Source: a virus (lineage: Duplodnaviria; Heunggongvirae; Uroviricota; Caudoviricetes). Taken from it: DNA of 48,521 nt. Made by a program: the position numbers. The stretch spans positions 1 to 48,521 of IMG/VR virus record IMGVR_UViG_2511231131_000009. One strand, 5' to 3'. Positions within the stretch are counted from its first letter, which is position 1. Each line of letters begins with the position of its first letter. Positions 33,001-39,000 of the stretch are shown here, one piece after another.

Positions 33001-36000
33001 CCATACAACCACAAATTATCATGGCGTCATCATCAGAACACTGAGGACGTGATTTCACTTTAGTCGGGATTAATCCTTTAAAACCAGCAGCTATCGAGGG
33101 CCATGTTACATCTTCATGATTATTTGCTGCCCATGCCCCCCATCGCTCAAGAACCATCTGGATATCACGCGCCATCGTTACCACCTCTGATTTCGTAAAT
33201 CTTCACGCCCAGCCGTCCACCTGGCACAGGCTGACCGCGCACAATATTGATTTCATCAAACTGCTCGTCATCAATGAGCACTTCCGCATGCGTCAGCGCA
33301 TCCAGCGGTGCTTTCAGAATGTTGTCCAGGTCACGGCGGCGCTTATCCGGTGGTTCTGCAATAATTTTTATTGCCAGCCGTCCGGACAGGCTTAATTTCA
33401 GCCGCTGCTGGCGAACAATAAGCGCCACAGCCCGGCGATAACGCTCACCGGCTTTTGATACAAAATATGTGCTGCCACGACGTCGCCAGTAGGTGTTCAC
33501 CGTCGGCGGGTAAGGCAAAACAAACTCTATACGCATCAGTAACCTCTTTTACCCGAGCACGCCGGTTGCAAAAGCGTGATCAAGAAAACGAAAAATTAAA
33601 TCAACCTGGGAACCATGCTTTTCTTCGAGCGCCAGCGGATCCGCATGAAGCTCGTTGTGATGCTCCCGACACAGCGGTAGCGTGAAAATATCGTGGGATT
33701 TTGTTCCCATTCCACCCTGACCATGACCAATCAGATGATGAGGATCGTCCGCTGGCTTACCACAACACGCACACGGCTGTGTCTTTACCCAGCGTGTGTA
33801 TTTCTCATTTACCCAGCGGCGACGTTTAGGTCGTTTCATGAAAGATTCCGGAGACTCAGGATCAACGGCAATGCTGACCACCGTCTTTTCCTGTGGTGGG
33901 TTCTGTTGCTGGTGGGCGTGAGGCAGCGGCGCAAGATTTTTTGTGCGCTGTTTCAGTATGCTGGTGGCGGTCTGCTCTCCCGGTACGATGTCGCTTTCGC
34001 GGTACACCGAGCAGATTTTTTCCGCTGGTAATCCCAGCGAGCGACGTAATACCGCTTCCGGTAGCGCGTCCGCCAGCTGATTGCGGACCGCCCACCAGGA
34101 TAATTCAGCCAGAGATAATTCACGCTCCTGCGTACCGCTTATTGCGTGACCGATGACGTCAATCATCCATGCTGACAGGTTTTGATGAGCAAGTTGCTCG
34201 AGTGATTCGGATGTCTGGTCACGCAGCTGGTTGTCGCAGTGCCAGCACAACACCATTGCGCCGGTACCATAACGGTGAATAACGGTTTCACTGTGATGAT
34301 AGTCACCATGAGGCCACTGGCAGGATTTGACATGACGCAACAGCCAGTCAGACAGTGCACCAGCGCCACCAACAGCACGAATCACACGCTCATTGCTGAA
34401 AAACGGCAGTAATGATTTATCCTCCACCAGCGGCTGGCGAACAGTGGGAACCGCTCCGGATGGCAGCGCCCGCATGTTTTTCGGTTCCGGCTCAACCAGC
34501 ACCCTGCTGTGATGAAAAACCGGCAGTGATTCGCGCCCGGGCTTAAGGACCACCAGCCCGAGTTCCGGTACCGGAACAGGTCGAAGTAATACCCGCACGT
34601 TACCTCCAGATGCGTTGCTGGAATGTGCGGGACGGACGCGGTGGGCGCTCGGAGTACGGCAGCCTGACGTAGATTATCCAGTGACGATAATCGAGGCTGA
34701 GGGCTTTCCTAAACTCATACCCACGTCTGCGGTAGTTCTGAATCAGCCATTCGGCCTGTTCTTCAGTGCATGGGGCGTGCCGGAACCAGTCAGATTTGAA
34801 TGCATGAGAACGCCGCCCGTGCCTGCTGGCAAAGACGGCTGAATTATCAGAATTGTGTAGTCTGGAATTTTGCGCCATCGGCTTTCTCCGGTGGCACAGT
34901 GTTACTCAACAGGGGTTCAGCCCTGCGCTGAATTGTAGATGAATTCACTAATCTTCAAAAGCAGAAAAACCAGCCTTAATCCCAGCTTCTTTCAGAGACG
35001 GCAACGATGTGACAAATTCATTTGCACGCAAAATAAAACCATCCGTCACAAGCCCATCCACAAAGTAAATTAACGCAGCTCCACTCTTCCTATGTAGAGA
35101 CTGTAAACATTTAATACGGCAGTGGCTGACAATAGCGCCATTCTCAACGCGCACAGTATAGAGGCCATCTTCACTAAAAATTTCACGTAATTCTTCGATT
35201 TTCATCAACAGAATCCTTCCAGATAAATAGCACTCCCCCTGTTCGGGGTCCATCCCTCTTCTCCCTGCGCGCTACTTAAGTATTTTTGATTCTATTCTGG
35301 CACCGTCCAAAACTTCAAACACGTTGAAAATAAAAACAAAAAACCCGCCGAAGCGGGTATACTCAAACAATCTGGAAAATATTTCTTGGATTTGTAATAG
35401 GTCTGTTGATGGAGAACAACTCACGAATTAAATCTTGGCTCAAGCCAGTTTTCATAAGAATTCTTAGCCAGGTTGCATCATCCAGCATTTCAATCGCCTC
35501 GGCCAGCATGCCGGGTTCTTCAGGGCGCAAAAGTTCATCACCAGGTTCAACTCTCGTATACCCTCTGGAATTAAGATGCATATAGCCAGTTCTTGCCTGT
35601 TCCTGGGTCAATAAGCCTAATGCGCTGGCTCGATAAATACACATTTTAAGGCTGATTTTCCATCTAAGTTTAAATTCAACCAGAGCATTCCAGTCGAATT
35701 GCTTACCTCGTATTCGTGGAAATTCTTTAATGAAAGATAACCTGGGAACTAATAAGGCGCTCGAAAAGTGATCGGCTTGTGATTCCGTAAGTTTATCACC
35801 TGTCGTTATGCCCTCATGCATTACTAAATGCCCTAATTCATGACCTAAATCAGAGCGAAATCTACATATGCTTTTTTTAACATTGTTCCTGATGATAACA
35901 GGCCTGTTATTGTGAACAGTAAAAGCATCAACACGATCATCGACTCCCGTAACATGCGCAACGATTACCCCTAAACTCTCCGCCAATTTAACCATTGATG

Positions 36001-39000
36001 ATATAGGGCCAAGACCTAAATTCCAGGCACGGCGACAATCTTCTGCCACTCGCTCAATATCATTCGGAGTAAGTAATTCAGCCCCTGGGTGCTCCGGTAT
36101 GTTAACGTCAGGAAATTCGATTTCACCTTCAACAGCAGAAATTATAATATTAAGAATCTCAGCCCTGGCCAATACACTATTAGTCAGCGTTTGAGTCCTG
36201 GACTTCTTACTCCGAAAATGGCAGACATCACTTTCCAGAGCGTATTTTCGTTCAGTAAAAAGAAAACTGGACTTAATCATAAGCGCTGAAGATATTAACT
36301 CAAGACATTGCTCCGATGGCCTGCACCCCTTCTCCAGTTTGCTAACAAATTGCTTTGTCTTGCCAATTTTTTCGGCTAACTCTTCACAAGAAAGCCCAAC
36401 AGCCATTCTCGCTAGTTTGAGCTTATCACCCCGATACTCAGTGAAGTTATTCACCTGATGTTCCATCACTGCTCACATCCAAATCTTTATCCTTCGTACG
36501 CCGACGAAGAGGCACCTTATTAATCTCCGCTTCGTCAGGGAGTGTGTTATAATCAAGAGGCATAAGCGGCATCGATGCTGTAGATTGATGAGAAACTATA
36601 CTAATCTGAGCACCATAAGTATTAAATCCAACAAGAGCTACCTCCCAACGAGGCAGTGTGGACTCTAATTCACCATCGCCCTCTTCGGATAAAAAAGGCT
36701 CAGCTATGACTCGCCATGTAATATCTTGCTCAGCCTCAACATCACCAAACAATGAGAGCTGCTCATACTCTACTTTATTTCGACGCAGACGATGTTTCTT
36801 TTTGGGGTTATTAATGCAATCTTTGGTAAATTGTAGCGGAACTTTATTTAAAGCAACTACATAGTCCACCCCCTTGGAAATCATCTCAAGGCCAGGAATT
36901 GCATCTTCATTTTGAATAAGATGATTTCTGACCCAATCATAAGCCCTTACACCTTCAGACCAGTTGCTGTCTAATGCGTGCTTATGATAGTACAGCTGCT
37001 CAAGTACGTTAGCGATCTCCGCCAACAAGTGGCGAACATAGTTTTCAGCAAGATAAGGTTGAAATTCCCAACAAGGAGCTAACTGATTTTCATTCATTTC
37101 AAGTTTCGCTTTTTTTAGAATTCGCAAACCACATATTTTCGCATTTTTCTATTTTTGTCAACCAGGCTAATGCAAAAACCCGCCGAAGCGGGTTAAGTGC
37201 GGGTGCGTTGAGGATGCCTGGCACATCAGAGGTGGCGGGAGATTACTCCCCCGCCGGGTCTCTTACTCCTCAGGTTCGTAAGCTGTGAAGACAGCGACCT
37301 CCGTCTGGCCGGTTCGGATTCGTACCTCGCAGAGGTCTTTCCTCGTTACCAGTGCCGTCACTATGACGGTTAAACAGATGACGATCAGGGCGATTAACAT
37401 CGCCTTTTGCTGCTTCATAGCCTGCTTCTCCTTGACCTTTTGGTCCGTAAGAGGCTAATCTCTATGTGTCGCATAGATATGGCCTCAGATTAATGTTAAG
37501 CGTCTTGCAGGACGCGTAATGTTAACTGGGGCTTTTCTCTATCTGCCTTTTGGTGTTCATGCCTGAGGCAGATAGCCTCAAGCACCCGCAGCAATTCTAC
37601 TTAACTCCCGTCACCTCGCCAATATAAAATCAATCAGAAAGGCGATCCATAAGAACAATAGCAAGACAATAAATTGCCACTACAGCCGCAATAGCCAGCG
37701 CGCATTTGAGAACCAGCACGATAACCTCCTGTATTGGACGTACACCAGCTCTGATAAATATGAGGCTGCCTCTTTAACTTCGCATTGCGCTACCAATCAA
37801 TAAAATCAGTGATGTTATCCAACCTAATTACAGTAACTTCCCGTCTCAACTGGTTTTTCCAATATATCTCACGAGCGTTTTGTTCACCAGCACCGCTCCA
37901 CTCAATTACTCTTAAAGGCTTAGAGGTTAGGTAAGGTCGAATAAGCAGGTTAAGGTGAATATCGAGACCAGAGTAACCAAACAATATTATTTCTTCTGAT
38001 TCAAATAATGCAAACTGCAAATAATCCCAGTACGTAGAAAGAACATTAGATGCTGCTATAACTGACGGTTTTCTTTTTATATGAGTTAACACTATATGCT
38101 CACTAGGTTCATCTATGTCAAGAGTAAGTTGTGAGCGTGAAAGTTTTAAAACATTTTCATGCTGATTAATAAATAGTGGTGAACCATGCAAGTGCAAATA
38201 ATAACCAAACCTACGATTGTATTTCCGTTCGAGCGCTGCAGAGGAAAATCCGTGGCTTAGCATCCCATCAACTAAAACCCCATCATACCCGTTGAATATA
38301 TCATTATCTATGAATGAATTGTATAATAATTTGTCATAGTTTAATGTCGCGATATGTGAGTGTGTGTTCTTTACAAACTCCACAAGCGCATTTTCGAATC
38401 TTTGTGGCAAACCTTTATCGTAATTATGCAACCTGGTTGCAACTTTGTGAATATAAGTGGCGGTAATTTTGGGGAAGTTTAGTCCATCTTCAGTAAGCCA
38501 ATGCACGTTCCCCTCTCCAATTTGAGCAAGAGCTTTACAATATGTGACAGCCTGGTGAAGGGTATCCAACTCATGTTCTCCTTCTGGTGGACCTTGCCGC
38601 TGAAGACAACGCTCGATAAGTTGCTTGTGGATATCTTTTAAAAAATTGGGGCGATGCCAAATTTCTTCCAACGCTCTGTCTAAGGAGAAGTGAGCAGGAT
38701 CTAAAGCCATACCGAGACCGTTGCCGAATATTATTAATTTTCTTGCCATATAGGGGGACTCATATTGGAATAACGCTGGATAGCGTAGCGCGATACGCTT
38801 AAGTTTAGGATTAATAGACATTCCGTTTGATTACACTCGTTATTACAAACTTGCATGCAAAGAAGCCCAAGCTGTTAGGTAAACAGAGACCGCAGTGGCA
38901 AGATAATCTAGATATAGCCTATAAAATCCAACAACAAATAGCGGCCTGTTTTCTATGACTTTTCTTTTCCCTAAATATCACTTATCTAATAAAATGCAAT

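Follow-up and report, generated by a model that had tools for sequence, protein, structure and literature searches.

A probable RosmerTA toxin–antitoxin cassette bounded by predicted transcription terminators in a lambdoid prophage of Escherichia coli O55:H7

What is encoded by a low-GC segment that sits between two identical hairpins in a prophage, and do the hairpins form its ends? The question is raised by a Qin/PPompW-type lambdoid prophage of E. coli O55:H7 strain RM12579, of which we analysed one 48,521-nt stretch, referred to here as 'the window' (Table 1). On a sequence-only reading, the segment had been described as an unknown protein together with an unusual fusion of a helix-turn-helix (HTH) domain to a metallopeptidase. 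That description fails: the defence finder PADLOC calls the pair as RmrT and RmrA, the two components of the published RosmerTA system, and the fusion, far from exceptional, is the standard architecture of RosmerTA antitoxins. The broader suspicion, that an HTH with a COG2856/M78 peptidase signals a toxin or defence module, was well placed. We consider it probable (roughly 0.8) that the segment is a complete two-gene RosmerTA cassette, in which a growth-arrest toxin and its antitoxin act against phages.

Table 1. Features of the cassette and its immediate surroundings (window coordinates; protein features in residues)
Feature	Position	Strand	Remarks
rem-like gene	34948–35205		85 aa; separate moron
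RosmerTA cassette (probable)	35339–37161	-	two genes
Left 20-mer copy	35339–35358	-	predicted intrinsic terminator of the cassette, 4 nt past the rmrA stop codon; -10.9 kcal/mol
rmrA	35363–36466	-	367 aa, predicted antitoxin; ATG at 36466; RefSeq WP_000401168.1
XRE HTH	RmrA ~17–63		Pfam HTH_3, E = 5.2e-7
Linker	RmrA 84–85		conserved FR motif
M78 Zn-peptidase domain	RmrA 177–282		H209-E-L-G-H213, E228; Pfam Peptidase_M78, E = 6.4e-11
C-terminal region	RmrA		conserved
rmrT	36447–37097	-	216 aa, soluble, acidic, predicted toxin; RefSeq WP_001004959.1; PADLOC RmrT PDLC03929; phrog_5786
Leader	37098–37141	-	three direct GCGAA(A) repeats at 37137–37141, 37120–37124 and 37104–37108; spacing 17 and 16 nt
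Putative promoter	37133–37161	-	-35 TTGACA 37156–37161; 17-nt spacer; -10-like AAATAT 37133–37138
Right 20-mer copy	37174–37193	-	predicted hok mRNA intrinsic terminator, ACCCGC-UUCG-GCGGGU + U-tract; -15.1 kcal/mol, z = -3.0

The family assignment rests on both proteins. RmrA aligns with PADLOC profile PDLC03943 over almost its entire length (E = 6.2e-105; residues 12–351 on positions 2–342 of 370), and 14 RmrA models are matched in total, in addition to the Pfam models for its two domains. As first read, the protein is a single HTH–peptidase polypeptide with a HEXXH motif (HELGH, at residue 209); its length from the ATG is 367 aa rather than 368. The HTH is N-terminal and the HEXXH...E signature is intact: an alignment that spans subtypes and takes in the verified RmrA shows no variation at H209, E210, H213, E228 or an A-D-x-F motif. 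The protein also matches the NCBIfam 'spr1629 family repressor/antitoxin' model, NF052239 (E = 1.5e-45), but at 155.9 bits, far below the 335-bit equivalog cutoff, so it is a homologue and not an equivalog of spr1629/RipB. RmrT matches PDLC03929 (E = 6.5e-25; residues 17–219 on positions 5–195 of 198) and, in PHROGs, phrog_5786 (E = 1.7e-84). Pfam, NCBIfam and PDB sequence searches, with the single sequence and with a 52-sequence profile, gave no match; the earlier statement that it belongs to no recognisable family thus holds for these three collections and not for PADLOC or PHROGs. It had been correctly placed on the minus strand, at a length of 226 aa; we put its start at ATG 37097, giving 216 aa, since TTG 37127 falls within the conserved promoter/leader region, and the RefSeq entry and every homologue begin MNENQ or MSxNQ. 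Within 1.84 billion proteins, clustering at 50% identity sorts the RmrT homologues into 69 clusters; all are ~200 aa long and occur only beside RmrA.

The genes lie between the repeat copies as two overlapping minus-strand ORFs, as first noted, and form an adjacent, co-oriented operon in which they share 20 nt. The pairing is conserved in homologues: rmrT followed by an overlapping HTH+M78 gene was found in seven of seven independent contexts checked (E. coli, Enterobacter, Serratia, Xenorhabdus and contig L012), all lambdoid prophages, at differing positions. A third gene conserved beside the cassette was not found in the homologous contexts compared. In one genome, CFSAN004176, a frameshift splits rmrA just before HELGH and leaves rmrT intact; if the frameshift is real, either the peptidase is dispensable for viability or RmrT is only mildly toxic.

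How does the pair compare with Rosmer systems already characterized? The verified RosmerTA of E. coli OLC-716 (Millman et al. 2022) likewise consists of two genes in one operon, the toxin gene leading; it defends against phage, and a delta-rmrA strain was unobtainable. Its RmrA has the same architecture (370 aa, 367 here) and retains HEXXH...E at 29% identity (E = 2e-35), whereas its RmrT (239 aa) shows no sequence relationship to the 216-aa protein here (hhalign probability 0.4%). RM12579 was not found among the entries listed in the Millman supplementary tables. The Gordonia phage Kita also encodes a Rosmer pair with an ImmA-type antitoxin. Ernits et al. (2023) found RmrA to be an antitoxin to diverse RmrT toxins, and Kita RmrTA to defend against Bas54 and Bas59, a narrow spectrum. 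The toxin of Kita depolarises the membrane, where its C-terminal region is predicted to reside; the RmrT described here has no hydrophobic segment (highest 19-residue Kyte–Doolittle mean, 0.84). In Streptococcus pneumoniae RipAB (Spr1630/Spr1629), RipB combines an XRE HTH with an ImmA-like domain as RmrA does, and the toxin, RipA, targets DnaN and drives competence. Dependence on ClpX or ClpP has been reported for two family members, RipAB and a toxin–antitoxin (TA) module of the E. coli E101 prophage (Rousset et al.), which suggests a shared route of neutralisation. The E. coli defence system PD-lambda-2 (Vassallo et al. 2022) likewise joins an Xre HTH to an ImmA/IrrE peptidase in one protein, beside a toxin-like gene. 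It differs in comprising three genes (a HigB-like toxin, the HTH-peptidase and a P4-antitoxin-like protein), and in that the HTH-peptidase is its toxic component.

HTH and M78 domains also occur together in regulators of quite another kind. In the regulation of ICEBs1, Deinococcus and CBASS, respectively, HTH repressors are cleaved by the proteases ImmA, IrrE and CapP once a signal has activated these. Might RmrA be such a damage switch, akin to ImmR/ImmA or CapH/CapP, that governs hok, SIR2 or prophage induction, with the 216-aa protein a mere accessory? Its M78 domain does match capP in PADLOC (E = 1.6e-14), and its HTH matches capH (E = 1.5e-4). These values fall far short of the E of ~1e-105 for full-length matches to RmrA models. 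In ImmR/ImmA (ICEBs1), DdrO/IrrE (Deinococcus) and CapH/CapP (CBASS), furthermore, an M78/COG2856 protein and its XRE HTH partner are separate and rule other operons, whereas RmrA is one polypeptide with a dedicated toxin. A cI/cro-type immunity region belonging to the prophage itself lies ~4 kb from the cassette, and the candidate targets next door vary independently of it. We regard a damage switch as very improbable.

The neighbours are, in fact, separate modules. A complete hok/sok locus directly adjoins the cassette, yet six other contexts contain the cassette without hok or SIR2, SIR2 and hok occur together with an empty slot, and thousands of genomes have hok but no cassette. Each unit has a promoter and a terminator of its own that insulate it from the rest, so the joint action with hok or SIR2 that had been suggested finds no support. 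The 85-aa ORF does follow the pair, as first described, but is not part of it: it is a separate rem-like moron, found at empty sites as well. In enterotoxigenic E. coli (ETEC), an IS element that might have targeted the hairpin was ruled out as doing so; it lies between hok and SIR2.

The earlier proposal of a discrete, horizontally acquired cassette is borne out. Of 5426 complete E. coli genomes, 237 contain the cassette and about 2669 have an empty junction with a single hairpin; presence and absence alternate exactly between the two hairpin copies and the same flanking genes. In O157:H7 and O166:H15, the empty sites have matching flanks: the sequence to the left of the single hairpin is that to the left of the window's left copy, and the sequence to the right is that to the right of its right copy. 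It is the right copy that remains. A search with a constructed empty site, in which the flanks of the window were joined artificially, found no near-isogenic pair of filled and empty sites, the best natural match being 94.5% identical in the flanks, and the event could thus be an insertion or a deletion. The low GC noted at the outset is real (41.7%, against 51.0% in the window). With a putative promoter and a predicted terminator of its own, the cassette is a moron of the nin-equivalent region. The moron, a concept of Juhala and Hendrix, is classically an insertion of promoter, gene and terminator.

The slot can also have another occupant. In phage Tritos (OV696610) and E. coli 729_xx_1_3_yolk, a different Rosmer subtype lies between the same hairpins, at the same spot after the hok terminator and with the same promoter core (TGGTTGACAAA, 17 nt, AAATAT). 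Its RmrA is only 32% identical to the one described here, its RmrT is unrelated (hhalign probability 0.1%), and it matches other PADLOC models (PDLC03947; PDLC03933/34). It also replaces the rem-like gene. At the sequence level, common ancestry of the three E. coli RmrT types was rejected by hhalign.

What, then, are the hairpins? The 20-mer AAAAACCCGCCGAAGCGGGT occurs exactly twice, around the two genes as first reported (at coordinates then given 1–2 nt too high). The exact repeat extends no further on either side, the copies are 1835 nt apart, and 100 shuffles gave no match even with three mismatches allowed. Such features could belong to the ends or attachment sites of a mobile element, moved by site-specific recombination or resembling a MITE/REP or an integron cassette: direct repeats stand exactly at the boundaries of the indel, one copy is present at empty sites, and the same pair of hairpins encloses two different cassettes. 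The details point elsewhere. ORF and Pfam searches found no recombinase or transposase inside the cassette. Both hairpins fold stably, are the top terminator predictions, and, with their U-tracts, are placed and oriented to terminate hok or rmrA. Homologous cassettes share the stem but differ in the loop (TTCG, TACG, TATAT, TGCTA, TCCG), which fits structural selection for a terminator, and where the cassette sits in another prophage it lacks the 5' copy and carries just its own 3' hairpin, in which the loop is different. The whole has the pattern of a classical moron. Both 20-mers are therefore best described as predicted intrinsic terminators with a UUCG loop, lying on the transcribed strand and serving hok in one case and rmrA in the other, and not, as had been supposed, as special cassette ends; a mobile-element origin for them seems to us highly unlikely. 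Being near-identical, the two terminators would have served as microhomology for gain or loss of the 1835-bp unit in the hok–rem intergenic region.

The right copy sits just upstream of the putative cassette promoter, whose function we infer from conservation and consensus. The promoter is invariant across homologues from E. coli, Enterobacter, Serratia and Xenorhabdus, and is common to the second Rosmer subtype. Its -10 element matches the consensus at only three of six positions, and a promoter scan of the window did not call it. The GCGAA repeats in the leader, the first of which overlaps the -10 element, are invariant alignment columns and might, speculatively, be an operator for the HTH domain of RmrA.

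How might a RosmerTA cassette of this form work? Transcription would start at the sigma-70 promoter just past the hok terminator, yield a bicistronic rmrT–rmrA mRNA and stop at the cassette's own terminator; the 20-nt overlap implies translational coupling. RmrT would be the growth-arresting effector and RmrA would keep it harmless, as the family literature suggests. RmrT being unrelated to the verified RmrT and to that of Tritos, the case for its toxicity and for an anti-phage function is an extrapolation that draws on the homology of RmrA and on gene order. RmrA would also repress the cassette promoter, probably by way of the GCGAA repeats. Infection by a second phage would disable RmrA-dependent neutralisation, freeing RmrT and aborting the infection, an outcome that would protect the lysogen population and the resident prophage. 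Because relatives need ClpX or ClpP, RmrA may do more than sequester RmrT, by processing it or by presenting it for degradation by ClpXP; the ClpXP route, the trigger and any biochemical activity of RmrT are speculative. A bolder version of this scheme strikes us as rather doubtful. It holds that RmrT is a new, soluble effector type, degenerate and restriction-endonuclease-like (D43, E110, Q113, R129), restrained by RmrA-directed, ClpXP-dependent proteolysis instead of sequestration, that the pair guards host proteostasis, and that the conserved promoter core and terminator stem, which unrelated Rosmer subtypes have in common, are recombination handles for swapping toxin subtypes at one lambdoid hotspot.

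Membership of the Rosmer family is no guarantee of an anti-phage role, because pneumococcal RipAB serves competence and stress signalling and not defence. The cassette could, instead, be a plain addiction module that stabilises the prophage by post-segregational killing, much like the hok/sok locus directly adjacent, with no role against infecting phages; the E101 module, of a homologous class, came to notice solely as a TA whose presence renders clpP essential. Both Rosmer systems assayed against phages gave defence, however, and in other strains the slot and its surroundings house defence-type genes such as AbiH, SIR2 and NACHT, as in a defence hotspot, with an adjacent second slot occupied by SIR2, AbiH, Paa, FRG or QueH depending on the strain. 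We think addiction alone unlikely, and the two functions are not mutually exclusive.

Standard defence finders already recognise the rmrT/rmrA pair, and current understanding is therefore unchanged: this cassette is an ordinary but neatly bounded member of a known defence family. It adds to that family a cleanly delimited, natively regulated RmrT subtype from the E. coli O55:H7 lineage, absent from the O157:H7 relatives examined. Boundaries of promoter, candidate operator and terminator are defined at base resolution, which makes cloning and mutagenesis straightforward, and the hok-adjacent prophage slot, either empty or filled by one of two Rosmer subtypes, is useful for the cataloguing of defence hotspots.

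The window matches E. coli O55:H7 str. RM12579 (NC_017656.1) at 100 % identity, and the region discussed here belongs to a lambdoid prophage of the Qin/PPompW type. Its genes, all on the minus strand, run in the order cI/cro-like immunity genes, YdaT, DUF977, SIR2, hokD/sok, the overlapping gene pair that concerns us, a rem-like 85-aa gene, a 92-aa gene, DUF968 (ydfU), RusA and Q. By this order the pair belongs to the nin-equivalent region, in agreement with an earlier sequence-only reading. Coordinates are collected in the table.

Features of the rmrT-rmrA cassette and its neighbours (window coordinates)
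Feature	Position	Strand	Remarks
DUF968/ydfU gene	33549-34598	-	weak HNHc_6 nuclease match, E 1.3e-4
92-aa gene	34600-34878	-	phrog_1212; precedes DUF968/ydfU
rem-like 85-aa gene	34948-35205	-	phrog_340; own promoter-like site 35318-35289
Left copy of 20-mer	35339-35358	-	starts 4 nt past rmrA stop codon
rmrA	35363-36466	-	367 aa
rmrT	36447-37097	-	216 aa
GCGAA(A) direct repeats (three)	leader upstream of rmrT	-	spacing 17 + 16 nt; first overlaps -10 element
-10 element	37133-37138	-	AAATAT; 17-nt spacer from -35 box; conserved
-35 region	37156-37161	-	perfect -35 box within conserved TGGTTGACA
Right copy of 20-mer	37174-37193	-	69 nt downstream of hok stop codon
hokD	37263-37418	-	adjoins sok
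sok RNA	37416-37587	-	Rfam RF01794, full-length, 107.5 bits (gathering score 59), E 1.7e-24
SIR2-family gene	37790-38821 (RefSeq model 37790-38749)	-	39 % GC; promoter-like site 39143-39114

Profile matches identify the pair as a RosmerTA system, consisting of RmrT (predicted toxin) and RmrA (predicted antitoxin). This system was described by Millman et al., who could not obtain a delta-rmrA mutant. In Pfam the larger protein matches HTH_3 and Peptidase_M78 alone, and the smaller one has no match. PADLOC assigns the larger protein to RmrA (PDLC03943, E 6.2e-105) over almost its full length, with matches to 13 more RmrA models, and the smaller, previously credited with no recognisable family, to RmrT (PDLC03929, E 6.5e-25). 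PHROGs has both families (phrog_2439, E 8e-123, and phrog_5786, E 2e-84, respectively). By these matches the cassette is assigned to a published defence family, and current defence finders recognise the pair at very low E-values.

Ernits et al. 2023 describe RmrA as an antitoxin of the ImmA protease type that frequently has an HTH at its N-terminus and whose partners are very diverse RmrT toxins. The verified Rosmer system comes from E. coli OLC-716. Between it and the window, the two RmrA proteins are 29 % identical (E 2e-35) across HTH, linker and peptidase, and the two RmrT proteins are unrelated (hhalign probability 0.4 %). Invariant in the cross-subtype RmrA alignment are H209-E-L-G-H213, E228, A231-D232-x-F234, an FR motif (F84, R85) in the linker between HTH and peptidase, and several C-terminal residues. 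The HTH–M78 fusion with its ‘extra’ C-terminal domain, singled out earlier as remarkable, is thus the defining architecture of RmrA.

RmrT is 216 aa long rather than the 226 aa first proposed, because all homologues and RefSeq start at MNENQ/MSxNQ, and the TTG start of the longer form falls within non-coding sequence that is strongly conserved. rmrT ends 20 nt inside rmrA, an overlap typical of translational coupling. The RmrT protein is acidic (pI 4.9; 24.8 kDa) and soluble by prediction (maximum 19-residue Kyte–Doolittle mean 0.84). Its family is small: a 5.8-billion-sequence database yields 21 matches, those with an organism name all coming from enterobacteria or close relatives, and 1.84 billion representatives, searched exhaustively with a profile, yield 69 clusters (50 % identity), nearly all of ~200 aa. 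An AF2 model built from a 52-sequence alignment is confident (pLDDT 85, pTM 0.75) except in the C-terminal tail. It starts with two long helices at the N-terminus, after which comes a beta-sheet that has two short helices lying between strands. Conservation is nearly complete at D43, E110, Q113 and R129, and strong at W128 and E133.

The cassette lies between two copies of a hairpin-forming 20-mer, AAAAACCCGCCGAAGCGGGT; the 48.5-kb window contains no other exact copy. The identity extends over 20 nt, and the copies are 1835 nt apart; the positions first reported for them were 1–2 nt too high. There is no third match in the window with up to 3 mismatches allowed, and none in 100 dinucleotide-preserving shuffles. 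An ORF scan recovers two overlapping minus-strand ORFs between the copies, with the 85-aa ORF coming after them, and the segment is AT-rich as noted earlier (41.7 % GC vs 51.0 % for the window). On these results the earlier observation is real and no product of chance. Each copy, on the transcribed (minus) strand, has the sequence ACCCGC-UUCG-GCGGGU with a U-tract behind it, at 35333-35342 for the left copy and 37169-37176 for the right. In a scan of 7 kb the two copies are the top terminator-like sites, with folding energies of -10.9 kcal/mol (left) and -15.1 kcal/mol (right), and z about -3. The right copy is the predicted terminator of hok, and the left copy that of the cassette (rmrA). Homologous cassettes in other places retain the CCCGC/GCGGG stem and U-tract of the rmrA terminator while its loop varies (TTCG, TACG, TATAT, TGCTA, TCCG), the pattern expected of a structure under selection.

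The comparison with related prophages proposed earlier shows the cassette to be present or absent precisely between the hairpins. In O157:H7 strain 9234 and O166:H15 JNE21-009, hokD is followed by one hairpin and then the rem-like gene, with no cassette. The left flank of this single hairpin is that of the window’s left copy and its right flank that of the right copy, so filled and empty sites differ by an indel of 1835 bp with breakpoints anywhere inside the 20-nt repeat. The cassette is present in 237 of 5,426 complete E. coli genomes (at least 99 % identical in 224 of 238 matching records), and the empty-type junction in 2,669. Phage Tritos and strain 729_xx_1_3_yolk hold a different cassette between the same hairpins, a second Rosmer subtype whose RmrA is 32 % identical to that of the window and whose RmrT is unrelated; it also takes the place of rem. 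In some genomes that have the window’s subtype, rem is missing or truncated, and in others hok lies directly beside the 92-aa gene with nothing between. The 92-aa gene is kept in every locus state, and forms a fixed left anchor. The nearest natural empty site is just 94.5 % identical to the window’s own flanks, and insertion of the cassette here cannot be distinguished from deletion elsewhere. A terminator-bounded polymorphism of this sort is tidy, yet conventional for a phage moron.

The cassette also occurs independently of this slot. In another lambdoid prophage, an 80 %-identical copy lies between ea22-like/DUF550 genes and a gene for DNA polymerase III theta; DUF1367 lies beyond, and neither hok nor the upstream hairpin is present. 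More distant RmrT homologues (52–83 % identical), from Enterobacter, Serratia, Xenorhabdus and one further prophage contig (L012), all reside in lambdoid prophages, at differing sites: past the replication genes, before DUF1367, or between Q and the lysis genes. In each, an overlapping HTH+M78 gene comes next; the RmrT–RmrA pairing is obligate. On L012, the cassette is followed after ~300 nt by a large NACHT/NB-ARC gene (5049-6651), which exceeds 624 aa and continues past the end of the locus, an arrangement suggestive of clustering with an Avs-like defence gene. About 90 nt 5' of rmrT, taking in the -35 box, the AAATAT element and the three GCGAA(A) repeats, are conserved across all traced homologous contexts; the second Rosmer subtype has the same promoter core, but not the same leader. 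The unit is thus self-contained, with a predicted promoter, two genes and a predicted terminator, which is the classical moron layout.

RmrA here has an intact metalloprotease site as well as its HTH. By analogy with the Rosmer family, RmrT would arrest growth and RmrA would neutralise it, and infection would free RmrT to give protection of the abortive-infection type. More speculatively, the HTH may repress the promoter through the GCGAA repeats overlapping the -10 element. ImmA cleaves ImmR, and IrrE cleaves DdrO; by analogy with these cleavage sites, the linker FR motif could, speculatively, be a site of RmrA self-cleavage. Neutralisation may also, again speculatively, go through proteolysis with ClpXP, an idea prompted by the ClpX requirement of pneumococcal RipB and by a TA of this class, from an E. 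coli E101 prophage, that renders clpP essential. In E. coli CFSAN004176 (L007, 2501-3603) a frameshift splits rmrA immediately before HELGH, into fragments of 206 aa (HTH and linker) and 152 aa (C-terminal), and rmrT is intact. Either this is a sequencing error, or the peptidase is dispensable for viability or for keeping RmrT harmless.

The neighbouring genes behave as separate units. The 85-aa gene, at first counted with the cassette, is a rem homologue and a small moron of its own, with its own promoter-like site; empty sites retain it, MS8324 has a truncated form, and AREA_R505, Tritos and CFSAN004176 lack it. With the full-length sok match beside hokD, the type I hok/sok module appears to be complete. 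In E. coli O141:H4 P13-6 (L016, 1284-2357) and many porcine ETEC, an IS481-family element separates hokD from SIR2, sitting in or close to the sok/mok region of a prophage whose Rosmer slot is empty. Upstream of hok, beside the Rosmer slot, is a second variable slot (window ~37600-39190), occupied by SIR2 in the window, the Paa adhesin in O157:H7, an FRG-domain protein in O166:H15 and phage Tritos, and QueH, DUF551 or a member of the AbiH family in related prophages. The SIR2-family gene has weak matches (Pfam SIR2_2, 1e-5; PADLOC Aga_SIR2, 3.9e-6; PDC-S21, 8e-6) and none in PHROGs or NCBIfam; it looks like a stand-alone single-gene moron outside recognised defence systems. The suggestion of a joint island with hok and SIR2 is not supported: thousands of genomes have hok/sok and lack the cassette, SIR2 and hok are known with an empty Rosmer slot, the cassette is also found without hok or SIR2, and nothing indicates that RmrA controls either. 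Independent modules make up the region, which is a hotspot for accessory and defence genes.
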